Shown piece by piece: positions 24,901 to 58,755 of a stretch of DNA of 64,000 nt. The DNA lies in the IMG/VR virus record IMGVR_UViG_3300032334_001252. The stretch is one strand, 5' to 3'. The translations under genes and the position numbers were made by a program. Each line of letters opens with the position of its first letter. Positions within the stretch are counted from its first letter, which is position 1. Below the pieces are notes generated by a model, which saw only the letters and a program-made list of their open reading frames with translations, did not search any database and was not told the origin of the DNA. This stretch comes from an uncultured virus (IMG/VR IMGVR_UViG_3300032334_001252). Its lineage: Duplodnaviria; Heunggongvirae; Uroviricota; Caudoviricetes.

Positions 24901-26547
24901 TGTGTCTGGATTAACTAAAGTATTGTAACTACCTTCTTTATAGCGTGATTGTAATGCACTACTAGGATTTTGTCCTAATTGTTCTGTTGCTGCACCATGA
25001 TAAACTTGTATTCCATTACCAGGTACTAAAGCTATAGTATGATACTGATACAGTTCTTGTGCTGCAGTATCATAATATTGACTAGGTATTGCTGCTAATG
25101 GTAATTCTGTTGTCCAAGTGTTAGCCATGCTACCACTAGTTGTAGAATTAAATAATGATGTAGGACTATTATCAGACCAATCATAGCCTGTACCATTCCA
25201 TCTGCCAAGTTGAACATATATGTCAGCTTGTGCAATTCCCACATCACCATTTTTAGTATTTACAGAACGCATACCTTCTGGAAATGTAAAAGATATTTCT
25301 ACACTTGTACCTGTTTGTGTAAAAGGTACTTCTACCCAAGGATTATATCCTGTAAGAACATTATTTACAAGTTCAACACCTTTGTTTATTTGCTGAACAT
25401 CTGAAGGATATAATCTGTTAAATTGTTCGTCATTTTCCCCAGGAACACCATATAAAGTTTTATAAGTAGGAATGTCAGGACCAATATTATCTATATAATA
25501 ATCTTTAATGGGTGTTGAACCAATACATAAGTTATCAACTTGTAGTGGTCCAAATCCCCAAACTACTAATAGGTTTAATAAATTTGTATCTGGTGCAGTT
25601 TGTACATACGGTACTGCACCTAAAGGTCCTGTTGAACGCATTCTTCCTAACACAACAGGTATTGATCCAAATCTATTAGCTTGATTTTGCCCACCAGTAA
25701 ATAAATTCATCTGTCCTGGTGTACCAGGATTATTAACGGGATCTTCTCTAATAGGAAATATTGCATCTACTAGTGCCATGCCTGCTACACTAATAGCTAC
25801 TGTAAGTGCCCTAGTTGCCCATACCGGTACCCATTCGCCTGCTGGTAAAATAAATTCACTTAATTCTGGTGCAAAAATAATGACTGCAAACATTGCAATC
25901 AGTCTAAGCGTGTTACCACCTTCTGGTACTGACTTATATGCTAGTACTTGTCCTCTTTTTAGTACAGTGGTTTCCCATTCTGATTGTGGAACAGGAATAC
26001 CGTCAACTGCTACAATTAATTGGCTACCAAAAGCGGGACTGACTTTATACTTTTCTTTTGTAAAATTAACAAAATCTTGAACTGTTGTACCTTCAACAGT
26101 CCATTCATGAATTATTTGAGTTTTTAATGGGTGTGGTGCTCCCACCACTTGAATATTATTATGTTCAGAATACTTATAGGTACCCTCTATTCTACTAGCC
26201 CAACGAGGACTAGCAATAGAATCTATAACACTGTCACTACCTTCACGGCTGTGTATAAATCTATTATTACCTAGATATACACCTATATGGCGGGGTTCGC
26301 CATAAATATTAAATAAAACAACATCACCTTCACTAGGTGTGGTTGTTAGTTCCCAGCTGTCTTTGTAAAGACTAATAGCCCTGATAACATTAGGGTCATC
26401 AGGGCTATTATATTCTTCTTGATAACTAGGTAATTCTATGCCTAATTCATCACGATAGTATAGGCATACCAATCCCCAGCAATCTACGCCCGTAATGTCT
26501 CTACCTTTTTCTTTGTAGGGTAAACCTATATACTTATCATATTTCAT
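21976..26547 (-). CDS. NlpC/P60 + gpI-like + gpJ-like tail tip fusion
   Basis: GLPY..GRD..GVDCWGLV...HIGVYLG..FIH; IPVVLG; NPA.LL; GDVVKVTHD; FN3 repeats. Confidence 0.85.
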   Translation of the reverse strand: MKYDKYIGLPYKEKGRDITGVDCWGLVCLYYRDELGIELPSYQEEYNSPDDPNVIRAISLYKDSWELTTTPSEGDVVLFNIYGEPRHIGVYLGNNRFIHSREGSDSVIDSIASPRWASRIEGTYKYSEHNNIQVVGAPHPLKTQIIHEWTVEGTTVQDFVNFTKEKYKVSPAFGSQLIVAVDGIPVPQSEWETTVLKRGQVLAYKSVPEGGNTLRLIAMFAVIIFAPELSEFILPAGEWVPVWATRALTVAISVAGMALVDAIFPIREDPVNNPGTPGQMNLFTGGQNQANRFGSIPVVLGRMRSTGPLGAVPYVQTAPDTNLLNLLVVWGFGPLQVDNLCIGSTPIKDYYIDNIGPDIPTYKTLYGVPGENDEQFNRLYPSDVQQINKGVELVNNVLTGYNPWVEVPFTQTGTSVEISFTFPEGMRSVNTKNGDVGIAQADIYVQLGRWNGTGYDWSDNSPTSLFNSTTSGSMANTWTTELPLAAIPSQYYDTAAQELYQYHTIALVPGNGIQVYHGAATEQLGQNPSSALQSRYKEGSYNTLVNPDTPTDYNYLPQVPPGAYKLYTIVIYGGTYLASSTIDHRSIYSSQGLQVTGLALSPTPYSVTATNITYYDNVPTSEEIATGTTRVSITAGSIRPGTQDNPLTPITEQTVCTSLDFVTGDYARAGSHNFWSSIINDYGIWKSSASTTTWSVPKVFGADKFQWSGWYSIEASADDQGTISIDGAVVATMPYAGGGSSVKNWVYLERGTHTVTVTAVNSGQNISGDVRGVGFKINYFPGGLNPQSSWSTTFQFGVGGFYEKRKDPFNFSYRFTDLDKDPQRYAIRAKRVNLDTAEITEGDNTVHYYYKVILSSASSFSNNNPVVNPPNCYLAKTAVRVQSTNKANGQIDGINAIVQTIGYDWIGGKWVAGKPINNPASLLLYVLTHPANAYKLNQTEAGINSSGVGHGTKINWAKLQEWHEFCSSGNPSGGKLSYNSIITSTISIMDIMRDICAAGMASPQYSDGKWTVIIDKPRDHTTQYFTTYNSWGFSATKALPRLPHAFRITIPDETIAYQANEFYVYNYGYNADGSGGKIKATLFEQLQLPGITNQQQATFMARWHLAQLTLRPETYSLNTDFEHLVCQRGDVVKVTHDVPQWGVGSGRIKNPQVGSNTLVLTERLWLTAGKQYQILIRTNNQSQPDGITKNIAAITTTGWYDTVNIVTVSGGTTTATISSSDGLADDNLFLFGELNKVSQQLVVISIEPGENATAKLTLVDYSPQIYTSDLTQLLIYDANITPISTPVIQNTINSAPIIVDVTSDSAVSEQISNGIYKNVAIISFANPAELTRNAEIVQFQVVDGTASIDSTSLNNLYYVNKEQGSIIINDLITGKIYKVRARYANQMGTISGPWSDVYTFTNIGKDTNYFSATGLYLDLDDVYLVATPVNITKPSDFDHWEFKIYKDTGSADFWDTTTTLTDGILNIQTVTGYDSGRFDLRNQHKPIISTSGVEYRVACRAVDRNGNYSDTSTLNSILVKTIQ

Positions 26548-27448: not shown

Positions 27449-30400
27449 TTATCTCCTTACCAATGCTGGACGATTACCATAATTTAAATTTAAAGCTTTC
27501 TGAGAACTAGAGCCAGTTGTACTGAGTTGATCAGCAACCATATCTCCAATAATAACTTCAATTTTACGGTTGCCTTTAGAATCTTTAGTTTCTGTAGTAG
27601 TTGCTTTATCATTGCCATAGTTATTAACTACAACATCAACATTGCCACCGCCGCCATTAATTACGCCTAAGTTACCTGCGCCGTCGCGACGTAATGGCAT
27701 AATAGCTTCAGGCCCTGCTTCGCCCATCATACCAGTACCTTGTGCAAATTTAAATAATGTTGGTTGCGTAACTATACCGCCCATAGCATATTTCATAACG
27801 CCCTGATCCCAGGCACTACCTTGTGCAGAAGCAAATAGTGATTTACCCCAACTAAATAAATCGCTAGCACCACTTTTAACTGCTGACATAATACCAGGTC
27901 CACCACCTAATCCATCAGGACCATTATATAACTTTAACATCTGTTGTTTTAATTCATATCGAATTAAATCAGCAATCATAGAATCTATCAAACCTTTGAA
28001 ACTAGTTTTACCAGTAGTAACAAATTCCGTAAATTTATCAGCAGCTGTATCAATTCCTTTTTCAATTACTTGAGAATATGCTTGTTCACGTTTACTTTTT
28101 TCATTTTGCGCTTCTAGTTCAAGATCAATGAGTTTTTTCTTAGCATAGTACTCATCATCAATTCCTTGTAAAGCTGCACTATGATTATCATCTTGACGTT
28201 TTCTTGCTATTTTAGCTTCCTCAGTTTCATAAATATTATTTTTCTTTTGTTCTAATATTAAATTTCTAGTGTCTGCTTCATACTTAGCGTTTTCTACTAC
28301 TTTAGCTTTTCTTCTTTCTATATCTGCATTAGTTAGTGCAAGAGCATTACTTTCAACTGAAAAAGTAAATTCACTAATTTTGCCATTATCTTTATCAATT
28401 TGAAGACCTTTTAATTTTGCATCATTATTTCTTAGTTGTGCATCAAGAGAAAGAACGTCTAAATTTTTATTATTTTCTGTTGATGCATTAAGTCTGTCAT
28501 TGGTTAAAGCTGTTTGATCTAATAGAGCTTTTCTTTTTGTTTCTGCATCTACAGTTTTTTCTATAATACCTTGTGTTTCCCGCATTTGTTGTAGATTTTT
28601 ATCTGCATTTACCATTGCTTCAGCACCTAATGCAGCTACACCACTAAATCCTTTTTGTCTAGAAAGATCCAATACTGCTGAACCTTGTGCTTTATTTTGT
28701 TCAAAAGGTAATTGTGCAATTTTATTTTGCTGAGCCACTTCTAGTGCAGTTCTTCTTGCAATTTCTACATCTCTGGCTTCTTGTGTAGGTAATTTTCTGA
28801 ACTCTTCTCCACCAAGATATTGTTTATTTTCAGCCTGTAGTTTTTGTAGTTTTTGGTCTTCTTCTTGTTTAATTTTATCAAATCTAGCAGCTATTGTATC
28901 AGTTACTCTTTTTACTTCAATTGCACCTGCTTCACCACCTAACTGTGCTAATTTTACTTTTACACCAATTCTTTCACTAATAATATTAGCTATAGTATCT
29001 GTTAAATTGCCTTCTTTATCAAATTCTTTAGCTGTTTTGTTACTAGTAGTAGCTTCTATCTCAGCAGGTATTTGTTTTAAACGTTTTTCAGCTGCTACAC
29101 GATCTTCGCCTGTAAGTTTAAATGCTCCGCCACCAGTTTCTTCTGCTAATTTAGCCTCTAAATTAATTCTTTCTGTATTTAAACGAGATAGTCTGGTTTC
29201 TTTTGATAATTCGTATAATGCTGTAATTTCACTTTTTCTAATAGCAATGGACTCTAACTCAAGTTTGGCAGTCATAGCAACAGTTGCTTCTGTACGTGGT
29301 AGTGTGCTTACTAAAGCTTTTTGATAGTTTATTGAAGCACTTTGAATTGCGCGTACTAATGGTCCTTCAATAAACTTAATAGCAGTTTCCATTGACCCAG
29401 ACATTTTAATAATAGTTTTATCAGAAAGATCTTTTTCTTTTGCTAAAATATCTTTTTGTTTATCTAATGCTGCATTTAGCTGTCTTTGGCCATCTGCTAT
29501 AATTGATGCACTTGATGCATAGTTTGCAGTATTGCCGCCGTTAAAAGCAATATCAATTGCTTTTTGTTTACCCTGTTGAATTAATTTTTCAGCAGCAGCT
29601 TGCTCATCTTTTGCCTGTCTTAGCTGTGTTTCTAGTTTTTGCATTTCGGCTGTAGCTGCTCGGAACTCAGTCTGTATATTAGCAGGCAATAAATCAAGTT
29701 TACTAGTATTATTAGCTAAATCTCTTAATTGTGCTAATTTAGCTATAGGATCGTCTACAGCTGTAGCTAGTGAATTCATTTGAGCTATAAGTGCAAGTGC
29801 ATATTTAGTACCAGCATCATTGCTAATAAATGTATTATTTAAATCTGTAAATGCTTTTTCTAGTTTTTTATATTTATCAGCAACATCCTCGCCAGGTGCT
29901 GCAATCTTTTTATTAGCTTTATTGATATCTTCAACTAAACCGGTTACACTTTCCATTGTAGCTCTGCTAGCATTTTCTAATTTAGCAGTTACCTTATCTT
30001 GTGTTAGTGGACCTTTTATCTCTAATAAATCTTTTAACTTTTCTTCTGCTTTTGATTTTAGCTCAGGAGTAGCTGCATCATTAATTGCTGCTATTACAGA
30101 TTTACCAAATCCTTCAATAGCATTTGATCTAGTTTGTCCACCTAGTGCAGTTGGTAAAACATTTTCCCAAAACTTTGACCAAGCCCCTTGAGCTTTTTGT
30201 TGTTCTTCTAGTTGCTTTGGCAACTCTTTTAGCGACTGTGCAATTCCATCAATTGCTTTAGATTTTGCAGATAAACCTGCTACTGTAGTTTCGTCACCAT
30301 AATTTTTAAATACATCAACTGCAGTTTTAGTAACTTCAGCTAAAATTTCTGTTTTACTAGCTAATGCTTCAGTTTCTTTTACAGCTGTACTTAAAAACAT

Positions 30401-32062
30401 ATCTAATATAGCTTTAGTACCTGCTAATATAGAAATTGCCATTCCTACATTGCCTAGTGCACCTACAAATTGCATTAATCTAGTAGCTGCAGCTGCAGCT
30501 GTTCCACTAATGCCAGTAAGTAATGCGCGTGGAATACTAAGATCTGCACGACTAATATTTGCAGTCATTTCATTCCAGGATGCTTTAAATCCTAGAATAC
30601 CAGCAGTTTCGCCTGCGGTAGCTACAATATTACCAGCCGCCGCTTTTTGTCTTGCTTTCTCCGCATCACGATTAATTGCGGCTTGTGGACTAAATACTCC
30701 AGCAGTAGCATTTAATTTTTTGTCTAATTGCGCTGTTTTTTCAGCTTCATCTCTATTATTTTTCTGATAGTCTTTGACTGCGGCAGACCAATCTCTATAT
30801 TGTTGCGCAACTTTAGTTTGTTTTGCACCTAATTCATCAATATAGGCTAACTCTGCTTTACTAATCTTTGAAATATCTCTATTAGGATCAGTGATAGTTT
30901 TAGCACGATCACTCATACCTTTTTTAGCAACTTTTAATGCACTATCTGCAGCACCAACCTGTGCAGCTTTTAATTGCTCAATATTTTCTACTTCTGCTTG
31001 AAAAGCCTGTCTACGTAAATCATTTTGAACTGCATTTGCTTTTTTAGCATAGTCTAATTTTGCTGCTGCTGCCACTGCTAATGCATCTGCTTCAGCTCTA
31101 GCACTTTGACGTAATTGTGAAATAGCAGGTAAAAATTTATCAAATATGCTTTTGGCTAATAGAATCATTACACCAGTTAATGCAGTAGGATTTTCACTTA
31201 AAAATCCAACTAAAGGTTTTAATACACTATTAATAAGTGTTAATCCTTGTAGTGATAAATTAGTAATACTTGCTAATAATTTATCATAGGGATTCGAATC
31301 TACTTTAATAGTGTTATATTTATCGCCGCCTTCTTTTAATACTGCAATAGCAAAGCCTTGGGCTCTTTCTAGTTCAGTAAGCGCATGTACTGGTTTGCCT
31401 AATGCTGCAGCATATTTTTCTACTGCAGGGCCTAATTTAGTATATATACCTAATTCATCTAATAATTCTGGTTCTAATTTAGAAATACCACGCGATAAAC
31501 GACTAACAGAATCATTTAAATCTCTGCCTAATGCCACACTAGCTTTTTTAGCTATATCTGCAATTTTTAATATTTGTTCTTGACTTAGTCCAGCACCACT
31601 AGCTTTTGATACTGCTTCCATGCTGTCTTTCATACTTACAGCAAATCCAGTAGCTGCCTGAAATTGTTTAGACATAGCACCTAATGAAACGCCACTTCTA
31701 GCGCTCATTTGTTCCATGCCTTTAGTCATATTTTCAAAGTCAGCAGCTTCTTTTAATTTACGAAATGCAGCTTCTACAGCAAATATTGTGGCTGCATATT
31801 GTGCATAAATTGCAACTAAACCACCAATACTTCTAGCTTCTTTTCCAAAATCGCGACCGGCCGCACCTGTTCCTCCGCCAATAGCACGAGCGGCATTATA
31901 GTCAGTATTCTCAGCTTTTGCAGCTGCAGCAGTTCTACGTTTGTTACTAGTTTCTAATTTGTCTAACTCTTGATTTAATCGCTGAGCTTCTTGGGTACGC
32001 TTTTGTGCCGTAGCCCCATCATCAGTAACTTGTAGATTTGCCTTAATGGTATAGTCTGCCAT
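27449..32062 (-). CDS. tail tape measure protein
   Basis: Long helical Ala/Lys-rich protein; KLEPELLDELGI; C-terminal GEAGPEAIMPL; GGAG RBS before ATG 32062. Confidence 0.93.
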   Translation of the reverse strand: MADYTIKANLQVTDDGATAQKRTQEAQRLNQELDKLETSNKRRTAAAAKAENTDYNAARAIGGGTGAAGRDFGKEARSIGGLVAIYAQYAATIFAVEAAFRKLKEAADFENMTKGMEQMSARSGVSLGAMSKQFQAATGFAVSMKDSMEAVSKASGAGLSQEQILKIADIAKKASVALGRDLNDSVSRLSRGISKLEPELLDELGIYTKLGPAVEKYAAALGKPVHALTELERAQGFAIAVLKEGGDKYNTIKVDSNPYDKLLASITNLSLQGLTLINSVLKPLVGFLSENPTALTGVMILLAKSIFDKFLPAISQLRQSARAEADALAVAAAAKLDYAKKANAVQNDLRRQAFQAEVENIEQLKAAQVGAADSALKVAKKGMSDRAKTITDPNRDISKISKAELAYIDELGAKQTKVAQQYRDWSAAVKDYQKNNRDEAEKTAQLDKKLNATAGVFSPQAAINRDAEKARQKAAAGNIVATAGETAGILGFKASWNEMTANISRADLSIPRALLTGISGTAAAAATRLMQFVGALGNVGMAISILAGTKAILDMFLSTAVKETEALASKTEILAEVTKTAVDVFKNYGDETTVAGLSAKSKAIDGIAQSLKELPKQLEEQQKAQGAWSKFWENVLPTALGGQTRSNAIEGFGKSVIAAINDAATPELKSKAEEKLKDLLEIKGPLTQDKVTAKLENASRATMESVTGLVEDINKANKKIAAPGEDVADKYKKLEKAFTDLNNTFISNDAGTKYALALIAQMNSLATAVDDPIAKLAQLRDLANNTSKLDLLPANIQTEFRAATAEMQKLETQLRQAKDEQAAAEKLIQQGKQKAIDIAFNGGNTANYASSASIIADGQRQLNAALDKQKDILAKEKDLSDKTIIKMSGSMETAIKFIEGPLVRAIQSASINYQKALVSTLPRTEATVAMTAKLELESIAIRKSEITALYELSKETRLSRLNTERINLEAKLAEETGGGAFKLTGEDRVAAEKRLKQIPAEIEATTSNKTAKEFDKEGNLTDTIANIISERIGVKVKLAQLGGEAGAIEVKRVTDTIAARFDKIKQEEDQKLQKLQAENKQYLGGEEFRKLPTQEARDVEIARRTALEVAQQNKIAQLPFEQNKAQGSAVLDLSRQKGFSGVAALGAEAMVNADKNLQQMRETQGIIEKTVDAETKRKALLDQTALTNDRLNASTENNKNLDVLSLDAQLRNNDAKLKGLQIDKDNGKISEFTFSVESNALALTNADIERRKAKVVENAKYEADTRNLILEQKKNNIYETEEAKIARKRQDDNHSAALQGIDDEYYAKKKLIDLELEAQNEKSKREQAYSQVIEKGIDTAADKFTEFVTTGKTSFKGLIDSMIADLIRYELKQQMLKLYNGPDGLGGGPGIMSAVKSGASDLFSWGKSLFASAQGSAWDQGVMKYAMGGIVTQPTLFKFAQGTGMMGEAGPEAIMPLRRDGAGNLGVINGGGGNVDVVVNNYGNDKATTTETKDSKGNRKIEVIIGDMVADQLSTTGSSSQKALNLNYGNRPALVRR

Positions 32063-32112
32063 AAACTCTCCAATTTTATTGTAAAAGTACAATAATATAA
32101 TTAATTTGATCC

Positions 32113-37172: not shown

Positions 37173-39137
37173 TTAGGTTGCTGTGTACTTGTGTGCTGTA
37201 ACTGCGTTACCGTAGTTACTTGTAACACGTGTCATACCTGTACGTAGGCTAGCTACCATAACACGACGTTGTGTCTCTACCAACTCTTGTGTGTCGATAC
37301 GTAGACCGCGTTGGTTACCAACAATGAAGTTACCTGGGTTCAAGCAGATTGCACCAGCAACACCTGTACCTGGAGTAGCAAATTCACCAGAAACTAATAC
37401 TGGGCTACCACCGATTTGGCCAATTTGACCAGTTAGTAATGTAGCTTGTGTACCAACTTGGTTCATTGTTTGGAACACTGTGTCTTCTAGCAATTGGTAG
37501 TATGTATCGGTATTAACGATATAAATTACTTCTTGTGGATCTAGACCCCAAGTACCTAGGCCTTGGCGTAGAGTACGCATTTTAGCAACTGTCATACCAG
37601 CAGCAACTGTATTACCAGTAGCAGTAGTGTTAGAAGCCCAGTTAGACAATCCCTTAACAGGAACTGTAGCATCGCCAGCACCTAACAAGAAAGCTGCATC
37701 AACAGCGCGAGCAACACGACGAATCATGCCGTCACGGATGATTGGCATTAAAGCCAATAGTGAGTCTTCTTCTTCTTCGTAAGCTGTGTACTCGTTAGTA
37801 GCAACTTTATATGCATTCAAAGTAATTTCTTTGATAGCGTGTGTAGAATTTCCACCAGCAGAAGCGCCAGCAGTAGATGTACCAGGTGTACCTGCAACAG
37901 CACCAAAGTTGCTGTTAGCAACCCAAGTAGCAGTACCTGCTTCTGGATTAACTGGAATTGTCATTACGTTAGTTTGCATAGCAATGTTGCGGAAAATAGG
38001 AGCAACAACTAAACGACGACGAACTTCAGCTTCTAGATTTAAAGAAACTTCTGTTTCCCATGTAGCGCTAGGAACGTGATTGCCATACTTTTCGGCATAT
38101 TCGCGACCTGTACGTGTACCTTCGATAGATTTACCAGCCATTTTGGCTAACAAAACTGCCTTCTCTTTTTCAGCATAAGTCATTTCACCAGACTTAGTGT
38201 CAGTGAAAGTCATTTTAGATTTTGTGATTGCTTCGATTTCAGCAGCTTTATCTTTTAGAGCAGCTTCTAAACCAGCTAAAGCTGATTTGCTTTGCTCTGT
38301 TTGAGCTTCTAAACGCTTTTCTACTTCGGCTAACAAACGCTCAGCGCCTGTGTCGACAGTAGATACTTGTGCAGCAACGGCTGCTTTAACTTTAGCTTCG
38401 AACTCAGCTTGTGCTTTTTCAGCAGCAGCTTTTTGATCAGCGGCTTTAGTTTGAGCTTCGATAACAGCCTTGGCTGTAGATTCTGCGGCTTTAGCAGCAG
38501 TGTCTGCTAGCAATTGTTCTAATTGTTTTGGATCCATGATGTCCCATTCCTTTTTGATTTCGCTATTTGCTTCCGTTGAGGATTCTAGCCCTTTAGCTGA
38601 CTCGCTGTTGGGTGCAAATTGCAGTTTGAAAGATTTCAATTCTTCGGCATTGTCAAATGCTTTAGAAAGACTAAATAGAGTATTTTGATTTGCTGGCACT
38701 GACACTACTGAAATTTCATGTAGTTCCAATTCTTTTACTACGAACAGCTCTTGAGCTGCATTGTATTCCGCGTCTACGATTCGGAATCCGATACTAAATG
38801 CGGTTAGTACACCGTCTTTTACAAGATTGTACACTTCTTCTGCTGCGCTAGAAATTCTGGCTTTAATCCATAATCCTTTTGCATCAACTTTGTGTTCTAC
38901 CATTCGGCCAACTGGTTCACTATGGTCATGATAAGCTAAAATTACTGGATTTTTCAAGTAATTGGCAATACCTTTTTCCCACACACTGGCCGGCACTACA
39001 TCCCCTTGGCGATCTGCATCATTGGTACTTGCGTAACCAGTAATATAAACACTACCTTCTGGATCTGTACTTGCTGGTAGAGTATCACTCTTTGTAAAAG
39101 AACTGTTTAAAAACAGAACTTTATTTTTATCTACCAT
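37173..39137 (-). CDS. HK97-type prohead protease fused to major capsid protein (T5 pb11+pb8-like)
   Basis: GYAST..DR.GD, HDH..PVG, FSIGF, EISVVSVPAN, then coiled-coil delta domain and HK97 fold (GQIGGSPV). Confidence 0.92.
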   Translation of the reverse strand: MVDKNKVLFLNSSFTKSDTLPASTDPEGSVYITGYASTNDADRQGDVVPASVWEKGIANYLKNPVILAYHDHSEPVGRMVEHKVDAKGLWIKARISSAAEEVYNLVKDGVLTAFSIGFRIVDAEYNAAQELFVVKELELHEISVVSVPANQNTLFSLSKAFDNAEELKSFKLQFAPNSESAKGLESSTEANSEIKKEWDIMDPKQLEQLLADTAAKAAESTAKAVIEAQTKAADQKAAAEKAQAEFEAKVKAAVAAQVSTVDTGAERLLAEVEKRLEAQTEQSKSALAGLEAALKDKAAEIEAITKSKMTFTDTKSGEMTYAEKEKAVLLAKMAGKSIEGTRTGREYAEKYGNHVPSATWETEVSLNLEAEVRRRLVVAPIFRNIAMQTNVMTIPVNPEAGTATWVANSNFGAVAGTPGTSTAGASAGGNSTHAIKEITLNAYKVATNEYTAYEEEEDSLLALMPIIRDGMIRRVARAVDAAFLLGAGDATVPVKGLSNWASNTTATGNTVAAGMTVAKMRTLRQGLGTWGLDPQEVIYIVNTDTYYQLLEDTVFQTMNQVGTQATLLTGQIGQIGGSPVLVSGEFATPGTGVAGAICLNPGNFIVGNQRGLRIDTQELVETQRRVMVASLRTGMTRVTSNYGNAVTAHKYTAT

Positions 39138-45825: not shown

Positions 45826-46302
45826 ATGGCTAAAATTACAAAGGTTTCAATATATGACATGGATGGCACAATCGTTGATTCACTGCATCGGTATCGTACT
45901 ATCGTTGATGCCAATGGCGAACGAATTGATCTCAATTATTGGAGAGAAAACGAATATCGGGCAATGGATGATTCACTATTGCCACTCGCAGAACAATACA
46001 AGCGAGATCTCGCAGATCAAAATTGTTATGTTATTATTGCTACTGCCCGTGTTCTTCGTTCCGCTGATAATCAATTTATTAGCGAGATTTTAGGCGAACC
46101 CGATTATATCATTAGTCGCAATGATGGATCGACAATATCAGGCGGTTTGCTAAAAATTAATGGTTTAGCAAAATTCTTCAATTTGATAACTTTCAAAGAT
46201 GCTGAATTTACTTTTTATGAGGATAATGTAGACTATCTCAAAGCGGTTTGCGATAGGTTTAATATTCGTGGCGTTTATGTTCCATCAAAACAAGGACACT
46301 AA
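45826..46302 (+). CDS. dmp: HAD-family deoxynucleoside-5'-monophosphatase (T5 Dmp-like)
   Basis: DMDGTIVDSLHR, LLPL, ATAR, FYED; pre-early context. Confidence 0.75.
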   Translation: MAKITKVSIYDMDGTIVDSLHRYRTIVDANGERIDLNYWRENEYRAMDDSLLPLAEQYKRDLADQNCYVIIATARVLRSADNQFISEILGEPDYIISRNDGSTISGGLLKINGLAKFFNLITFKDAEFTFYEDNVDYLKAVCDRFNIRGVYVPSKQGH

Positions 46303-48394: not shown

Positions 48395-48715
48395 ATGAAA
48401 GCATTGAACTACACTCCAGAGCAAACGCTCGCAATGGTTGCCGATTATCAAAACGGCGTTTCTGTAGAACAAATTGCCGAAACACTTGGCAAAACTGTTC
48501 GTTCAGTTGTTGCAAAATTGAGCCGTGAAAAGGTTTATAAGGCTAAAGAATATATTTCTAAAACTGGCGAAAAACCAGTTAAAAAAGATGTTCATGCCGA
48601 TGCAATTGGCGCAATTTTGCGACTAAATGAAAATGATATTGAATCGCTTACTAAAGCAAATAAAAATGCTCTCAAAGCAATTTTTGATGCATTGGCAAAT
48701 TCAAAGCCAATTTAA
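48395..48715 (+). CDS. T5 A2/D3-like DNA-binding protein (paralog 2)
   Basis: Closely similar to 43650 ORF (NYTPEQT...KLSREKVY...KKDVHAD). Confidence 0.8.
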   Translation: MKALNYTPEQTLAMVADYQNGVSVEQIAETLGKTVRSVVAKLSREKVYKAKEYISKTGEKPVKKDVHADAIGAILRLNENDIESLTKANKNALKAIFDALANSKPI

Positions 48716-48798
48716 AATTATATAACATAATTTTAATAACCCTGCAAATTGCAGGGTTATTTTTTAGCTTAATAACCCTACAACCCGTAGGGTTATTT

Positions 48799-48870
48799 GC
48801 GCCAAAATTATAACATAATTTTGGGGCGCGTGTCAATAGGTACTTTCCCTAATGTTGGCAAAAAACAACA
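48799..48870. repeat. pre-early intergenic repeat copy 6
   Basis: GCGCCAAAATTAT-AAC-ATAATTTTGG..TGTCAATAGGTACTTTCCCTAATGTTG. Confidence 0.88.
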
Positions 48871-48877
48871 CCTAGTC

Positions 48878-48938
48878 TGGCACGATTCTTGCGCCGCGGC
48901 GGCTGGCACGATTATTGCTAATAGCAAGGTTCATGCCA
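48878..48938. promoter_or_regulatory. three sigma54 (-24/-12) consensus sites
   Basis: TGGCACGATTCTTGC (48878), TGGCACGATTATTGC (48904), minus-strand TGGCATGAACCTTGC (48924-48938). Confidence 0.8.
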
Positions 48939-48947
48939 GCAAATCCA

Positions 48948-48966
48948 AATGCGAATGATTATCATT
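48948..48966. promoter_or_regulatory. Fur box
   Basis: AATGCGAATGATTATCATT. Confidence 0.7.
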
Positions 48967-48976
48967 CAGCAAAAAG

Positions 48977-49028
48977 TTATCCACAGGTTATCCACAGAGG
49001 GCAAAAAGTTATCCACAGCTTATCCACA
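48977..49028 (+). promoter_or_regulatory. four perfect DnaA boxes
   Basis: TTATCCACA at 48977, 48988, 49009 and 49020. Confidence 0.9.
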
Positions 49029-49222
49029 GCAGCAGCGCTGCTGCGCCAGTGCAAAAGTGGGAAAGTGGGAAATTTTGAGGTACCGCGTGCGCCCATTATA
49101 TAGTGTAAAACCTAATTTGTCAAGTGTATTTTCGATTCAGGTTGCCTCAAGTGCAAAAATAATCTCTTGATCGATTTTGCAGAATTTTGTATAATTTATA
49201 TATTGATGGAAAGGAAACTGAG

Positions 49223-49354
49223 ATGACAGACAATGAATTTTTTAGGCTGGATCAGGAGCAGTGGTACCAAGATTTTGTGGATGCAGAAGTGTATGAAATT
49301 ATGGCAAGTACTATCCCACACGAAGAAAATTTCTTACTTGATGTTCCCTTCTGA
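49223..49354 (+). CDS. 43-aa acidic peptide ending DVPF
   Basis: AAGGA RBS and upstream TTGATC-17-TATAAT promoter; MTDNEFFRLD...FLLDVPF. Confidence 0.6.
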   Translation: MTDNEFFRLDQEQWYQDFVDAEVYEIMASTIPHEENFLLDVPF

Positions 49355-49406
49355 TCAGTGTATAATTTAATCTTTAACGGCGCAGAAACCAAAACACAAA
49401 GGACAT

Positions 49407-49715
49407 ATGATGACTGACAAAACTGTAAACTATACCCCTGAGCAAACTCAGCAACTCGTGCAAGCCTACCAAGACGGCCAAAGCGTAGAAACTTTGGCAA
49501 TGCAATTGGGTCGTAGCACTCGTAGCATTGTTGCTAAACTGTCACGCGAAGGCGTGTACAAAGCAAAGAGCAAAGCCAGTGGCGTTGCTCGTGTCAAGAA
49601 GGCTGACCTTGTTGACCAGATCGCTAACCGTTGCGGTGTAGCTCCAGAGATTTTCGAATCTCTCGAAAAAGCCAACCACGAAGTGTTGGAAGCAATTGTC
49701 GCTAACTTGCGTTGA
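49407..49715 (+). CDS. T5 A2/D3-like DNA-binding protein (paralog 3)
   Basis: VNYTPEQT...RSIVAKLSREGVY...ESLEKAN. Confidence 0.8.
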   Translation: MMTDKTVNYTPEQTQQLVQAYQDGQSVETLAMQLGRSTRSIVAKLSREGVYKAKSKASGVARVKKADLVDQIANRCGVAPEIFESLEKANHEVLEAIVANLR

Positions 49716-49781
49716 TTGTTACGGTTGGGGGTCAAAAAATATTAACTTGATCTCCAGCCCCTTTTCATGTATAATTATTCT

Positions 49782-49917
49782 ATAAACAGTCGGGAAGGGC
49801 TTAATGAATACCACAGCAATGTGGTGCCCGTCTGCACAAGAACACTTACTCAACCTTTGACAAAAACTATTAGTCTCTTACGTAAGGTAGTCTAGTTGCA
49901 ACGACTGTTATTTTTTA
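49782..49917 (+). ncRNA. candidate ~130-nt structured small RNA
   Basis: Promoter TTGATC-17-TATAAT (49747-49775); closing stem AACAGTCG/CGACTGTT followed by T-run; internal ACCACA-GCAA-TGTGGT hairpin. Confidence 0.55.
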
Positions 49918-50276
49918 CTTGAAAGTTTAAATCAATTAGCGTATAATTGATATATAGATTGGGTGGACAGCGGTCACTAAGCTAAACATAGTGATACGTC
50001 CTTAATTGTACAAAAGCTACTCACCGAGCTACAGCCCCAAGCTAAAATTATCTATAAATTAGTGTTATCAAGGTATCGTGTGCAGACGTGTACACTATTC
50101 GGGTCCCATCAGCCAGAGGCGGATCCTGATATAACTGCTTGGCGTAGGGAGGCTTAGCGGCTTGTCCCAAAATTGGCAAGATAACATTAATTTATGGGTA
50201 AATCGAGACCAGCTCTATGCGTAACTGGATAAATTTTTAATTGCGACTGAATGACTCTGGTTGCAGCCCGTTTAAA

Positions 50277-50378
50277 CACCTCTGATGAGTACCCTGGGAT
50301 GGGACGAAACTCTAAACCTTGAGGCAACTTTGCTGAGTATTCCCCATACACACGGTTGCATCGGTTTAGGGTCAGGTG
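50277..50378 (+). ncRNA. type I hammerhead ribozyme
   Basis: Stem I CACCU/AGGUG; CUGAUGA; stem II GU(A)CCC/GGGAC; GAAA; stem III ACUCUAAACC/GGUUUAGGGU; GUC cleavage triplet ending 50373. Confidence 0.85.
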
Positions 50379-50791
50379 AAAGAACACCATAAAATACAGC
50401 TATCTTCTAACCAAGAACTGGGTTCACCCAGCAATGTGAGTATGGAATCTTACTAGCGATTGAATAGTGTTGCGCAAACTATTCTATTAATAGCGCACCC
50501 CGACCCTAAACTGCAGAGGGGTCGCAAAAAATTGTCTGCAGGCGCTAAGCACTGAAACTGTAAGCCGACAAAGCCCAAAGTCGATAAAAATGTGGTGGGC
50601 AGTAGTGCCGAACCAATACTGTTAGTCACGGATATCCCGACGACCTTATATGGCAACTGTGGACTGAAACGTGCAGCTTACCTAAATTAGAGCAGACTCC
50701 AATTCACCACTGGCTAAGGCTTTTACCAATTTAGGGTCAGGTAGCTGTGGTGGCTTAAAAATCCTGTTGTGAGCAAAAAACTTCTAGAGTT

Positions 50792-50831
50792 CAAAACCCC
50801 GTACACGTAATGGTGACGGGGTTTTGTTTTT
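50792..50831 (+). terminator. intrinsic terminator
   Basis: CAAAACCCCGT...ACGGGGTTTTG followed by T5. Confidence 0.8.
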
Positions 50832-50955
50832 GGAGCTTGCTGCGCCATTATACCATAGTGCCAAAACTACTGTCAAGTGCGTTTTCAATAACTTGACCCT
50901 AAACCGCAACAATTTGACCGAATTCACGGCACCCGCGACCAATTGTGTGAAGACG

Positions 50956-50994
50956 CAAAAAAGCCTACTTAACTCACATTAAGTAGGCTTTTGT
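50956..50994. terminator. bidirectional terminator after D3-like gene
   Basis: AAAAGCCTACTTAA...TTAAGTAGGCTTTT. Confidence 0.8.
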
Positions 50995-51013
50995 GTTTTT
51001 GGGGCCAATTTGC

Positions 51014-51325
51014 TCAGTTTAGGGTCGATTCTTGCAGTTTAAGTTCAATTAACTTAAGCACCTGCTTATTAACCTTTTCCAAGCTCTCCAACATCTCTTC
51101 GTCGCACCCTAGCAGTGTGGCGATGGTGGCAATATGAGCTGACTTCTTAATTGGCACCTCACCACGCTTGTTGACATACTGCTTTTTGTGGTAGACGCCC
51201 AGAGAGCTCAATTTAGCAATCACACTGCGTTCTGGCACGTCTAAGGTGGTAGCTAGTGTGGCTACAGGAGTTCCACTTTTGTACTGTTCGATCAAATTGT
51301 CTGTAATTTCTTTTGTGTATTTCAT
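51014..51325 (-). CDS. T5 D3/A2-like DNA-binding protein (paralog 4)
   Basis: MKYTKEIT...RSVIAKLSSLGVY...ESLEKVN; follows D2-like gene. Confidence 0.75.
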   Translation of the reverse strand: MKYTKEITDNLIEQYKSGTPVATLATTLDVPERSVIAKLSSLGVYHKKQYVNKRGEVPIKKSAHIATIATLLGCDEEMLESLEKVNKQVLKLIELKLQESTLN

Positions 51326-52101
51326 AATAACCAAGGTAGTTCTGTTTCTAGTGTTTGACTTTTTGTAGCCAATTGTTGTACAGGTTCAGGCTTTTTAAAC
51401 ACATCATGCGGAATTATAGGTTCTGGCATTAAGTCCCAATTGTTGGGATCTAAGATCATGAGTTGATCTCTATGTTTGGGATGTGCTAACCAAATCTGAC
51501 ACAACATAGTTTGTGTTAGTTTAGGAAGATGACCAATCTCAGTATCTTGGATTCCTGTAAGACTCCAAGTACTTTCAGCAGGCTTTTGTTGGCCTGCCTT
51601 TGACCCACTTCTTTGAGTGAGCCCTTGCGTTCTAATTTCCAATAATCTTTCTGACCCTAAATCGCTATAAACCACATCCAATGCAGCCATCAATTCAGGT
51701 TCTAAAATCCACTCCAAATTATTTAGTCCACGCCACTCACTATAACTGATACCTTGATATAATTTTATACCAGCTAAAATTAGTGGAGTAAGACTACTAT
51801 ACTTAGGATTTGCAATTTGCTTTGCGACTAATAAACTTCTCTTGATTCTAGTCAATTTCCACAATTCCTGCTGTTTAGGGTCACTGCAGTTATGTTTTAG
51901 TGTAGCTAAAACATCAATACAACCACTAGGGCCATACATAACCGACCACCTGCCAAAGTTGCCAACAAGTTGGGGCAGCAGCCAAGATTCAAAGCGGTTT
52001 AACTTGTTGTCTTCAGCCCAAAAGTTTAGTTGTTTATCTTGTAGTTTAACAATCTCTTTTAAGTCCAAATATTCAATATCTTGTTTTTTAATTTGTATCA
52101 T
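51322..52101 (-). CDS. T5 D2-like protein
   Basis: C-terminal QIWLA...MILDPNNWD.MPE resembles T5 D2 (from memory); D2-D3 order conserved. Confidence 0.6.
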   Translation of the reverse strand: MIQIKKQDIEYLDLKEIVKLQDKQLNFWAEDNKLNRFESWLLPQLVGNFGRWSVMYGPSGCIDVLATLKHNCSDPKQQELWKLTRIKRSLLVAKQIANPKYSSLTPLILAGIKLYQGISYSEWRGLNNLEWILEPELMAALDVVYSDLGSERLLEIRTQGLTQRSGSKAGQQKPAESTWSLTGIQDTEIGHLPKLTQTMLCQIWLAHPKHRDQLMILDPNNWDLMPEPIIPHDVFKKPEPVQQLATKSQTLETELPWLL

Positions 52102-52130
52102 ATTTTTAAGCGTAGTATTCCTATTTATAG

Positions 52131-52260
52131 GGACTAGTGGATAATCCTAAACGACTTGACCCTAAATTGCAGAAACACACGCTTACGGGAACCCTCGTTG
52201 GAATCGTCCCATATCGAAATGTTTCTGCATTAGACTCTGTCTTTTGAATTCCACTAGTCC
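52131..52260 (-). ncRNA. rod-shaped structured RNA / 5' leader of D2-like gene
   Basis: GGACTAGTGGA/TCCACTAGTCC outer stem, TGCAGAAACA/TGTTTCTGCA inner stem; minus-strand promoter at ~52283-52312. Confidence 0.5.
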
Positions 52261-52437
52261 TTAACTTTTTAAGTTATACTAAATTATATCATAACGGGCA
52301 AATAGTTGGCAAGCTAATTTTTTAGTGAGCAGGTAATTCGTGATTTTTGTAAATCGTAGTTACAAATTTTGTGAATTATAATTATTATAACAGGTTGGGT
52401 GTTATTTAGCAAGTGTTTTAGTGCGGTAGCGGTGCAT

Positions 52438-52791
52438 TTACTTTAGTAATTGTTTTGCCTTGGTGGTAATGTTTTGCTGTGATTTTGTCAAGTCAATGTA
52501 ACCTAGGCTTTCAAGCACTGCTATGATAGCTAATGTATCTTCCAGTTCTGCTACTAAATCTTCCAAATTGGTGGTAGTTCTGTCTGGATGTTTATTGTTG
52601 GCCCCAAACCGCCTAATCTTGCTAACTGCCTGAATGCATTCAGCAGACTCTTCCTGCAATTTGTCTAGTAGGTAATTAGTTTGTGCTTCACGAATTGTGG
52701 TAGGTTGTAACAGTGGTTGTTCTTTAGGTATGTCTTTAATTTGTTCTGGTTTATAATTCATAAGGTCTTGCATTGGAGTAGTATGCATCAT
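52438..52791 (-). CDS. MazG-like NTP pyrophosphohydrolase
   Basis: QEESAE.IQAVSK..RFG...ELED. Confidence 0.7.
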   Translation of the reverse strand: MMHTTPMQDLMNYKPEQIKDIPKEQPLLQPTTIREAQTNYLLDKLQEESAECIQAVSKIRRFGANNKHPDRTTTNLEDLVAELEDTLAIIAVLESLGYIDLTKSQQNITTKAKQLLK

Positions 52792-52984
52792 AGGTGGTTT
52801 CCAATGATGACTAGTGTTAGTGAAATGAGTGTGATTAAGTTAATGGCAACAGCTACCACAAATATGGTTGCCGCTGCTACTATAAGTTGTTTGTAGTCTG
52901 GAGGCATTATAATTCCTTTTTTGTAAATTATATTATAGCACAAATACAAAAAGGATTCAAGTGCAGAGACTTGAATCCTTTTTA

Positions 52985-53140
52985 TTACTTAGGTTTCCGT
53001 TTAGGTCGATCAGGATTAGCTTCCACATCTTGCGGCAGTTTAGGGTCGAAAGTACCTGGCTTTGGTTTAGGTTGATTGTTAGGTACTGTTTCTGGTGGAT
53101 TAATGTGTTGAATAGGTTTATTAGGATCAGGTTTAGCCAT
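52985..53140 (-). CDS. 51-aa Pro-rich peptide
   Basis: GGAG RBS; MAKPDPNKPIQHINPP...KRKPK. Confidence 0.5.
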   Translation of the reverse strand: MAKPDPNKPIQHINPPETVPNNQPKPKPGTFDPKLPQDVEANPDRPKRKPK

Positions 53141-57314: not shown

Positions 57315-57982
57315 TGAAATATACTTTCAGGAAAGAAAGCTTCAATGGTTACAGGTGCAATAAAACGCAAATCATGTAAAATTTGTTGTGCAATATCTCT
57401 GTGTTCTCGCTGAGTGCTAGGGTCTAGTCGTTGTTTAAGGTAAAATATCCAACTACGCATATTGCCATTCATGTACATTCTGCTCATGGTCAAACCTTCG
57501 GGCAAAATGGCACGGGCTTGCTCTTTGGCAATGCCTAAACTAAGTGCATAATCATAGTTTTCTTGAGCCTTTTTCATAATATTGCTTTGCAATTGTTCCC
57601 ACTGATAAGCAATACGCCTATCATCATCATTTTCACGAAGGTTTAATTGCATGCTGTTTTGACGATTTTTAGCGTCTTGCAGTCTAGCCTCTCTATGCAC
57701 AAACTCGCCTAACTCACTCACATCTGCATAACGCTGTGAAAATTCTTGGAAACTAAACGATCTATGACGTAGTATTTGACGACCAATGTCACGTGTAGTA
57801 TTAATCTCTACACAAACATTAGCCATTTCAAAAGGACTAGTATGTCCCTCACGCATCATATATTTTAATAGTCCAGCAATTTGCTTATTAGTTTGATTAT
57901 CAGGATTTGATACTCTAGCCATGTATGCTATTTGTTTGTCAATGTCGGGTGTTGCCCAAATAATTTTTGTAGATTGTGTCAT
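57311..57982 (-). CDS. thyX: flavin-dependent thymidylate synthase
   Basis: H.SPFE, RHRSFSFQEFSQRY, EQAR.ILP, QREH. Confidence 0.96.
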   Translation of the reverse strand: MTQSTKIIWATPDIDKQIAYMARVSNPDNQTNKQIAGLLKYMMREGHTSPFEMANVCVEINTTRDIGRQILRHRSFSFQEFSQRYADVSELGEFVHREARLQDAKNRQNSMQLNLRENDDDRRIAYQWEQLQSNIMKKAQENYDYALSLGIAKEQARAILPEGLTMSRMYMNGNMRSWIFYLKQRLDPSTQREHRDIAQQILHDLRFIAPVTIEAFFPESIFQ

Positions 57983-58755
57983 ACTGTAATTTGTAAGTGT
58001 GGATTGAATTCGTCTCTGGTTTCATAACCGTAGTAACCATGTGGGTTGCATACTAATCTAGTGTCACCAATTATAATGTCTGAGGGATCATGAGTGTGAC
58101 CATACAACCAAGTAGTATTTGATAACCCACTAATATATTCACCAAGATCATTAGCAAAGTAGTTATTCAATAGGTCACTACCACGATAGCGTTCATGAAT
58201 ACACTCGATAGCTGGCAAAAAATGTGTAACAATTACTTTTTTGTATTCTGAGAATTCATTGTACACAAAGTCAATAGCATCTAAGTCCGCATAAAAACGC
58301 TTAGCGGCTTCGTTAGTGCTAAAGTCCCGAATAGTTTTAAAATCACTAATTCTGCTTTGACAAGCCATGTGTGCAATGTGGTCAGCACGAAAGTTAGTCC
58401 ACAATGTGCCACCACAAAATACTACACCATCAATAATAGTAAAGTTATCATTAGGATTAGTAAATGCGTACACACGATCCCAGTATTCACGATTACTAAG
58501 TATTGCGTCTAACTCATTATTAAATTCATTAATACTAGTGCCATAAAATTCATGGTTACCAGGAACGTACACAATTTTAGGAAAACCAGCTTCTAAGAAT
58601 TTGTCTATAGTATGCGCTACATTATTAGCACCCACGGCAATATCGCCAGCCAAAACCAATACATCTTCACCTTTATATTCCATAAAAGTTTCAGTGTACA
58701 TTGATTTTGAACGGAAAAATTCGTGGTGTAAATCACTTAGTAATCTGATCTTCAT
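57979..58755 (-). CDS. metallophosphoesterase
   Basis: SDLH, AGDI, PGNHE, VTH, GHTH. Confidence 0.92.
   Translation of the reverse strand: MKIRLLSDLHHEFFRSKSMYTETFMEYKGEDVLVLAGDIAVGANNVAHTIDKFLEAGFPKIVYVPGNHEFYGTSINEFNNELDAILSNREYWDRVYAFTNPNDNFTIIDGVVFCGGTLWTNFRADHIAHMACQSRISDFKTIRDFSTNEAAKRFYADLDAIDFVYNEFSEYKKVIVTHFLPAIECIHERYRGSDLLNNYFANDLGEYISGLSNTTWLYGHTHDPSDIIIGDTRLVCNPHGYYGYETRDEFNPHLQITV

Follow-up and report, generated by a model that had tools for sequence, protein, structure and literature searches.

A conserved, modular RNA locus with a hammerhead ribozyme in an uncultured freshwater T5-like phage

The DNA analysed here (the window) is a stretch of 64,000 nucleotides from an uncultured virus, IMG/VR record IMGVR_UViG_3300032334_001252. 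Its source is an uncultured freshwater T5-like phage, a distant T5-like siphophage whose terminase is 51% identical to those of Vibrio T5-like phages; PHROG annotation agrees with this placement. The element in question occupies a gene-free gap between a small helix-turn-helix (HTH) gene, which ends at 49715, and a convergent HTH gene, which ends at 51014. An initial annotation, made from the letters alone, had proposed that 49919-50831 is a non-coding transcript built from tandem structured domains, among them a hammerhead ribozyme. The RNA locus is conserved, expressed, structured and non-coding. Hammerheads are a well-known type of ribozyme, but no described RNA family matches the folded modules that surround this one.

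Boundaries and relatives of the RNA locus

The features of the locus are collected in Table 1. The longest open reading frame (ORF) in 49716-51013 encodes 67 amino acids (aa), and two ORFs of this length lie on the - strand. Window ORFs of at least 30 aa recur in at most four of 21 other genomes, and insertions and deletions among relatives do not come in multiples of three. The earlier statement that the region holds no credible ORF is thus confirmed.

Table 1. Features of the RNA locus and other features of the window, with positions in the window.
Feature	Position	Strand	Remarks
Promoter P1, TTGATC-17-TATAAT	49747-49775	+	10/12 consensus match; conserved in 8-sequence alignment
P1 RNA, ~135 nt	49784-49918	+	5' and 3' ends pair, AACAGUCG/CGACUGUU, just ahead of U-run
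Promoter P2, TTGAAA-17-TATAAT	49919-49947	+	sigma-70-type, 11/12 consensus match
Module M1, three-way junction	49961-50038	+	closing helix GGG/CCC; arm GAC/GUC with variable hairpin; linker UUAAUUG; second hairpin
Module M2, optional long hairpin	50057-50192	+	13-bp closing stem AATTAGTGTTATC/GATAACATTAATT (50057-50069 / 50180-50192)
Module M3, M1 paralogue	50196-50269	+	directly upstream of hammerhead
Type I hammerhead	50277-50378	+	core, three stems, GUC
Stem I 5' strand, CACCU	50277-50281	+	
Core CUGAUGA	50282-50288	+	
Stem II	50289-50305	+	
GAA	50306-50308	+	
Stem III 5' strand, ACUCUAAACC	50309-50318	+	
Stem III 3' strand, GGUUUAGGGU	50363-50372	+	
C17	50373	+	predicted cleavage between 50373 and 50374
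Stem I 3' strand, AGGUG	50374-50378	+	
Predicted 3' cleavage product (cargo), ~460 nt	50374-50832	+	conserved blocks 50391-50459, 50565-50615; highest RNA-contig depth
TTTAGGGTC copy	50502-50510	-	in 3' RNA, reads GACCCUAAA in + strand RNA; kept in relatives
Core hairpin, CACG-GAUA-UCC[variable hairpin]GGA-CUGAAA-CGUG	50627-50673	+	invariant internal loop
TTTAGGGTC copy, site 2	50730-50738	+	in 3' RNA; second sense copy
Intrinsic terminator T1	50793-50831	+	hairpin CCCCGU/ACGGGG 50797-50821, then TTTTGTTTTT T-run 50822-50831
Convergent promoter facing T1	50847-50876	-	perfect consensus, 12/12 with TG
TTTAGGGTC copies around terminator T2	50895; 51018	-; +	
TTTAGGGTC copies inside 259-aa gene	51653; 51874	-; +	
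TTTAGGGTC copy in 259-aa gene leader	52158	-	
TTTAGGGTC copies further on	53039; 60078; 63218		
Giant tail-region ORFs	4734-9212; 12641-17065; 17389-21966; 21976-26547; 27449-32092	-	1474-1547 aa

Both ends of the proposed transcript are conserved. A promoter of the P2 form precedes the element in all 22 full-length relatives described below, and transcription from P2 would start near 49954. Terminator T1 is kept in all 25 aligned sequences that reach the 3' end, and its stem shows compensatory changes; it is absent from the list of a terminator scanner because its 13-nt loop exceeds the limit of that program. The promoter and terminator claimed initially (49919-47 and 50792-831) are therefore both upheld. 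The T1 hairpin is also readable as a weaker - strand terminator. The convergent promoter that faces it is conserved in seven of eight aligned sequences and in the compact relatives, and would yield only a short RNA, barring read-through of T1. Three perfect 12/12 sigma-70 promoters lie on the - strand within 2.1 kb (48836..48807, 49123..49095 and 50876..50847), with no obvious gene behind any of them.

A second RNA, driven by promoter P1, adjoins the annotated interval on its upstream side and is part of the same RNA locus; it had been missed earlier. Twelve of the 21 pairs predicted for the P1 RNA show compensatory changes among 21 sequences, and the fold passes both shuffle and slid controls.

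Relatives were collected in steps. A protein-guided scan yielded one partial locus, which brought to light an invariant 15-mer (50661-50675). This 15-mer, run against viral contigs, gave 23 loci, 13 of them real relatives, and a longer pattern run over lake metagenome contigs gave 22 further loci. After clustering at 98.5%, 26 distinct sequences remained, that of the window included, and 22 of these are full-length. All distinct relatives have retained P2 and the main blocks; large blocks are inserted or deleted among them, and a block of ~200 nt present in some is missing from the window. The nearest record, G001, has neither the region nor the 9-mer motif described below. Isolate phages gave no blastn or tblastn match to the region, to the neighbouring 259-aa protein or to an HTH paralogue, no similarity was found among 50,697 phage records, and none of 185,579 species genomes of cellular organisms contains the invariant core pattern.

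The hammerhead and the modules around it

The hammerhead has an identical layout in all 22 full-length relatives, comprising CUGAYGA, GAA, the pairs A15.1-U16.1 and G10.1-C11.1, and the GUC triplet; the sole variable core position is N7 (U or C). Stem II has ten different sequences among the relatives, and arms and cleavage sites change together: L009 has ACCCUCGGG with CCUGAGGGU and UCCA with UGGA, and L020 has AACCUU with AAGGUU. Fourteen of 20 pairs are changed on both sides, and 83.1% of cells are paired against 73.2% after shuffling (slid controls, 22-44%); none of 500 shuffles is as high. By stem, the paired share is 97.2% for II, 79.8% for III and 80.0% for I. Judged from these sequence comparisons, the element is a bona fide type I hammerhead with three covarying stems, as had been proposed, and it would be expected to cleave itself after C50373. 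One 86-nt RNA contig gives a weak hint of cleavage: its alignment runs from 50459 back to 50376 and leaves two letters over, so that it ends at most 2 nt from the predicted cut.

Modules M1 and M3 share an architecture of 80 nt, with a closing helix GGGU/GCCC, an arm with an internal loop and a hairpin, the linker UUAAUUG and a second hairpin. In M1, 96.9% of cells are paired against 87.4% in shuffled alignments, seven of 16 pairs are changed on both sides, and none of 500 shuffles is as high. The corresponding values for M3 are 96.9% and 77.8%, and double changes affect 15 of its 18 pairs. When the window is searched with a covariance model of M3, M1 is recovered (19.8 bits, E 0.0044). Of 67 loci, 52 have a match of 40 bits or more to the model immediately ahead of the hammerhead; 21 of these were rows of the training alignment, and the other 31, among 46 non-training loci, are new. 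The model also gives 20 weaker second matches at the M1 position. The M1 junction is the conserved unit in an area (~49952-50056) for which a domain closed by TATAGAT/ATCTATA had been proposed; that closing pair is specific to the window and absent from relatives. The domain closed by AATTAGTGTTATC/GATAACATTAATT fared better. Its stem covaries, being kept with different sequence in L034, L021 and L035, although the domain (M2) is optional: it is full in the window, L020, L034, L021 and L035, L037 and L044 carry a mini version, and the remaining relatives lack it.

The core hairpin of the 3' RNA is 100% paired across 39 distinct sequences, all three inner pairs covary (UCC/GGA, CUC/GAG, UCGC/GCGA, CUAC/GUAG and UUUU/AAAA occur as inner helices), and the internal loop is fixed. 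M1, M3 and the core hairpin all pass pair counts against shuffles and slid controls. A helix scan added covarying hairpins at 50209-12/50225-28, 50376-78/50385-88 and 50436-40/50449-53; all were local, and no long-range helix stood out. RNAalifold found little in the 3' block beyond the core hairpin and the terminator. The idea of tandem structured domains is thus sustained for the M2 stem and the hammerhead. It is not sustained for two proposed pseudoknots, which have no covariation support, or for a CAGCTTACCT/AGGTAGCTG stem, which pairs in the window and is 75.5% paired against 75.4% after shuffling in 25 sequences. In an adjoining 4-bp helix, ACCA/UGGU (50706-50710 with 50748-50751), a single pair covaries, as CG in 14 sequences and UA in 11. 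Twister, pistol, hatchet, hairpin and HDV-like ribozymes were considered for the conserved 3' block and rejected, since no Rfam model of these matched at E up to 10.

The modules turn over among relatives. L009 lacks M1, only a minority has M2, and a tRNA-Glu(UUC) lies on the + strand between M3 and the ribozyme in L011, L020 and L021. A degenerate hammerhead pattern found 51 loci in viral contigs; the M1 anchor lies upstream in 32 of these, and the 15-mer of the window occurs in only five. The 3' parts of these loci fall into several unrelated clusters, some without the core hairpin altogether. Three of ten loci inspected look unrelated, being GC-rich coding sequence without motif copies. Nine loci cluster by downstream sequence into a compact class without 3' cargo. 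In the six of these that were inspected (L050, L052, L058, L062, L070 and L088), a structured leader, a motif copy in opposite orientation and the hammerhead are followed directly by a terminator and convergent promoter. L062, the one compact locus checked for its surroundings, sits at the equivalent place, between an HTH gene and a convergent 259-aa/HTH pair. The unit kept most widely is therefore M3 together with the hammerhead, reduced in the compact class to the hammerhead by itself; the downstream part is exchangeable.

The + strand is marked by the promoter/terminator pair, the hammerhead, the embedded tRNA-Glu(UUC) and G-U pairs, which are C-A mismatches if read on the opposite strand. 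Examples are M3 pair 53/71 (GU in 12 sequences, GC in five) and hammerhead pair 46/105 (GU in 14). RNA data were found in 12 runs that hold part of the stretch; contigs of four of these, from four freshwater metatranscriptome studies, were aligned. They cover 49746-50779; the highest word depth in run X1 is 176 for a bin and 374 for a single position. None of the four runs has any depth on 50780-50967, and farther on depth is scattered and below 4; upstream of 49370 it is below 1.5, and one bin over the gene at 49407-49715 reaches 11 in one run. Contigs of X1 start at 49784 and 49786, and one ends at 49922. The stretch 50028-50309 is almost uncovered and coverage stops short of 50780, which, with contigs, proves nothing. 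The proposal of a structured non-coding transcript running from promoter to terminator, with a hammerhead inside, is borne out by the conserved promoter and terminator and by covariation. Comparison of homologues, proposed at the outset as a check, gave covarying local helices and neither a long-range helix nor support for the pseudoknots.

A repeated 9-mer and the surrounding genome

The 3' strand of stem III plus the GUC is one copy of a repeated 9-mer, TTTAGGGTC; that the cleavage-site strand belongs to such a family had escaped the initial annotation. The window holds 11 copies against 0.42 expected, and none of 100 shuffles reaches 11. The first nine, from 50365 to 53047, strictly alternate in orientation and have the extended consensus YTGCRG-TTTAGGGTC-R. 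Relatives keep copies at corresponding places, with only partial alternation. Of the six copies at 51653, 51874, 52158, 53039, 60078 and 63218, which lie outside the RNA, four are inside protein genes. At the site in the 259-aa gene, nine of 16 homologues, with protein identities as low as 38%, retain (T/C)TTAGGGTC, with a varying codon ahead of it; six of these nine carry TTTAGGGTCAGA exactly, and other homologues have one at another place in the gene. The copies do not share one orientation with respect to local transcription, which would fit a DNA-level site, perhaps for the three HTH paralogues described below; such a site would not account for the alternation or for the coincidence with the cleavage site. 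In the compact class, the core is preceded at ~50 nt by a perfect copy in opposite orientation, which might act as a switch by competing with stem III.

Two further roles for the 9-mer were considered and rejected. A closing helix between the copy at 50502 and site 2 at 50730 fails because pairing of the extensions scores 2.95 within genomes and 2.91 between genomes. Trans or alternative cleavage at other copies fails because in L009 and L020 the arms and the hammerhead's own site changed together and site 2 did not. Since other copies kept the consensus where the own site and arm drifted, they are not substrates of the hammerhead.

Three paralogous HTH proteins of ~105 aa flank the RNA locus (48395-48715 and 49407-49715 on the + strand, 51014-51334 on the - strand). 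They match the PHROG 'D5-like regulator / DNA binding protein', and two of them match GcrA/sigma-70 region 4 in Pfam, below threshold only. The ORF-poor gap at 48716-49406, outside the RNA element, holds four perfect DnaA boxes, TTATCCACA, on the + strand at 48977-49028. They form two pairs 2 bp apart, 900 bp upstream of the element and not in long inverted repeats; 0.72 boxes are expected, and none of 100 shuffles has as many as four. Tandem matches to TGGCAC-N5-TTGC, which we take to have the -24/-12 spacing of sigma-54 type promoters, lie at 48878-48892 and 48904-48918 (two against 0.15 expected). Twin near-identical palindromic hairpins, AATAACCCTGCAA/TTGCAGGGTTATT and a variant, lie 36 bp apart at 48735-48797.

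Elsewhere, the window encodes a polynucleotide-kinase-like protein (45826-46302, + strand) and a metallophosphoesterase (57979-58755, - strand). Enzymes of these kinds act on 5'-hydroxyl and cyclic-phosphate RNA ends, such as a hammerhead leaves. The tail region has an unusual run of five giant - strand ORFs within 4734-32092. A 654-aa protein (37173-39137, - strand) matches both head maturation protease and major head protein families and is an apparent fusion.

Interpretation and comparison with known systems

We consider it probable that the locus is a + strand stable-RNA operon of a freshwater T5-like phage, modular and self-cleaving. Host RNA polymerase would start at P2 and stop at T1 near 50830, giving a non-coding primary transcript of ~880 nt. 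During or soon after transcription the type I hammerhead would fold, through long-range pairing of the two stem III strands (50309-50318 with 50363-50372) and pairing of those of stem I (50277-50281 with 50374-50378), and would cut after C50373. The products would be a 5' RNA of ~420 nt holding M1, M2, M3 and the ribozyme, presumably with a 2',3'-cyclic phosphate end, and a 3' RNA of ~460 nt that carries the core hairpin and presumably starts with a 5'-hydroxyl. The modules appear to be separable, to be swapped among phages and possibly to act independently. Relatives carry tRNA-Glu or other pieces before the ribozyme, a further module of ~200 nt after it, or a 3' part that is exchanged or absent; where it is absent, the ribozyme would merely trim the terminator hairpin off the upstream RNA. 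We infer that the conserved job of the hammerhead is to give the upstream module RNA a defined end, setting it apart from any sequence downstream. Binding of a protein or RNA partner through the recurring internal-loop hairpins is our guess at what the RNAs do. A modular self-processing operon is favoured because M3 plus hammerhead is widely kept and the downstream part is exchangeable.

Several observations weigh against this interpretation. In Rfam the hammerhead is assigned to Hammerhead_3 (type III) with 21.0 bits, short of the gathering threshold of 48.5; among the relatives no hammerhead appears at E ≤ 0.1 in seven loci, and 18 further hammerhead-pattern loci have no Rfam match, to a hammerhead or otherwise, at the gathering score. 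The Rfam alignment is mis-registered, the true fold being type I, and we attribute the low score to the ~42 nt that stem III encloses. Stem I is short, at 3-6 bp. Folding energy does not favour the + strand (z of -3.13, against -2.99 for the - strand); since the - strand folds as stably, energy alone says little, and the evidence is comparative. The lack of long-range covariation may reflect poorly aligned variable parts and an alignment of only 22 sequences. The RNA data are contigs, many of them from relatives, and attest presence in libraries rather than ends, strand or level, so that cleavage stays a prediction. The variable 5' half and embedded tRNAs described for GOLLD (PMC12286853) mean that module turnover alone does not exclude one large RNA. 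Finally, the repeated 9-mer, on both strands and inside genes, points to an extra DNA-level or trans-acting layer.

The initial annotation had left two options, one large structured RNA of GOLLD/ROOL size or an array of small, putative decoy RNAs released by self-cleavage. Under the first, the ~880 nt would form a single folded unit, perhaps a multimerising one, and the hammerhead would nick a linker with the halves staying together. Size, phage origin, an occasional linker tRNA and a conserved 3' block next to a variable 5' part recall GOLLD (PMC12286853), and apparent abundance in RNA libraries is high. The self-complementary stretches GGAUAUCC and CUGCAG, read as invariant, could make intermolecular contacts, but GGAUAUCC is not a palindrome in 15 of 39 variants, where it covaries within a local helix. 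At gathering scores, Rfam finds only two tRNAs, 11 kb away; a permissive search of 49700-51050 returned no GOLLD or ROOL at E up to 10, nor did the whole window at E up to 0.5, so that the earlier verdict of 'not recognisable as GOLLD/ROOL' holds, with the sub-threshold hammerhead, at 21 bits, as the only family signal. A single large RNA also has to contend with the missing long-range covarying helix and with the many relatives that keep M3 and hammerhead and have the 3' block replaced or absent; we regard it as unlikely. An array of separable RNAs is favoured over one such fold because modules are gained and lost and only local helices covary. The picture of an array needs one amendment, in that a single ribozyme would split the transcript in two and would not release every domain.

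A second rival is an element that acts primarily as DNA, a counterpart of the untranslated terminal-repeat regions of T5-like phages with an injection-stop or regulatory function, in which YTGCRG-TTTAGGGTC is a protein-binding site, for example for the HTH paralogues, and the RNA features are secondary. Nine of the copies crowd into 50365-53047 on both strands, also in genes, their places are conserved in relatives and in the 259-aa homologues, and their extensions do not covary as an RNA helix would. The two close pairs of DnaA boxes resemble those of the T5 untranslated region (bioRxiv 10.1101/866236). A DNA site, however, leaves unexplained an intact hammerhead core with three covarying stems, the G-U-tolerant helices of M1, M3 and the core hairpin, the embedded tRNA and an RNA coverage confined to the region. 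The absence of similarity to any of the 50,697 phage records and the sub-threshold Pfam matches of the HTH paralogues, whose binding is putative, speak against it as well. As the primary function this is quite improbable, and as the sole explanation unlikely; as a layer added to the RNA it is a serious possibility, if somewhat short of an even chance. A product of the - strand, whether an antisense RNA from the promoter at 50876..50847 or small peptides, could draw on the perfect, conserved promoter, on the equal folding of that strand and on its two 67-aa ORFs. The promoter, however, points at the T1 hairpin from no more than ~10 nt away, the hammerhead, the tRNA-Glu and the G-U pairs are all + strand features, and neither the rare recurrence of the ORFs nor the pattern of indels suits peptides; we give this very little credence.

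The modular operon may have a further side, which we put forward as a speculation with the odds well against it. The locus could represent an undescribed phage RNA operon family in which YTGCRG-TTTAGGGTC, strewn in alternating orientation over ~3 kb of early DNA, serves both as the cleavage-site strand of the hammerhead and as a cis or trans pairing or binding element. If so, the ribozyme would be turned on or off by motif copies carried by the RNA and by convergent mRNAs, or these copies would couple what happens to early messages to the non-coding transcript. The long 'untranslated repeat regions' of T5-like phages, until now interpreted only as DNA signals, may by the same reasoning be genes for RNAs.

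The locus adds a well-supported and apparently abundant non-coding RNA family to T5-like lake phages, for which we know of no structured RNAs described beyond tRNAs. It indicates that Rfam thresholds miss hammerheads with large stem III inserts. From the compact loci, with ribozyme and terminator, to forms with a tRNA or different 3' cargo, it offers a natural series for asking what purpose a hammerhead serves in a phage. M1/M3 and the GAUA/CYGAAA hairpin are new candidate protein- or RNA-binding folds, and, unusually, the 9-mer ties an RNA cleavage site to a motif spread across the DNA. A literature search, with subscription journals outside its coverage, found no paper on a hammerhead in a T5-like non-coding operon or on this RNA.

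Among described systems, GOLLD and ROOL (Kretsch et al. 2025, PMC12286853) are similar in being large phage non-coding RNAs with an occasional internal tRNA (here in three relatives) and a 5' part more variable than the 3' block. The present locus differs in matching neither model, in bearing a self-cleaving ribozyme and swappable modules, and in that only local, and no long-range, covariation was detected. Theta ribozymes, which are HDV-like and adjoin phage tRNAs (Kienbeck et al. 2024, PMC10879173), likewise combine a small self-cleaving ribozyme with a phage tRNA in a non-coding unit. Here the ribozyme is of a different class and most members have no tRNA; as the cut lies ~100 nt downstream of the tRNA, it cannot make the tRNA 3' end.

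The terminal repeats of T5-like phages contain kilobase-sized untranslated repeat regions with paired DnaA boxes, which Davison (2020, bioRxiv 10.1101/866236) reads as DNA signals for injection stop. Both have a kilobase-sized, ORF-free stretch rich in repeats and inverted repeats, with paired DnaA boxes nearby, which in the window are not set in long inverted repeats. The locus is at most a possible counterpart, and no sequence similarity between them was found; the T5 regions are read there purely as DNA, whereas the RNA described here covaries and is expressed. Type I hammerheads are also known from phages and prophages (Perreault et al. 2011, PMC3088659). They share the full core, three stems, the GUC, an intergenic position in a phage and a presumed role in cutting a long transcript into pieces. 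In the present locus stem III encloses ~42 nt with a hairpin of its own, the ribozyme follows an 80-nt module inside a non-coding RNA operon rather than lying between protein genes, and the strand with its cleavage site belongs to a family of repeated 9-mers.

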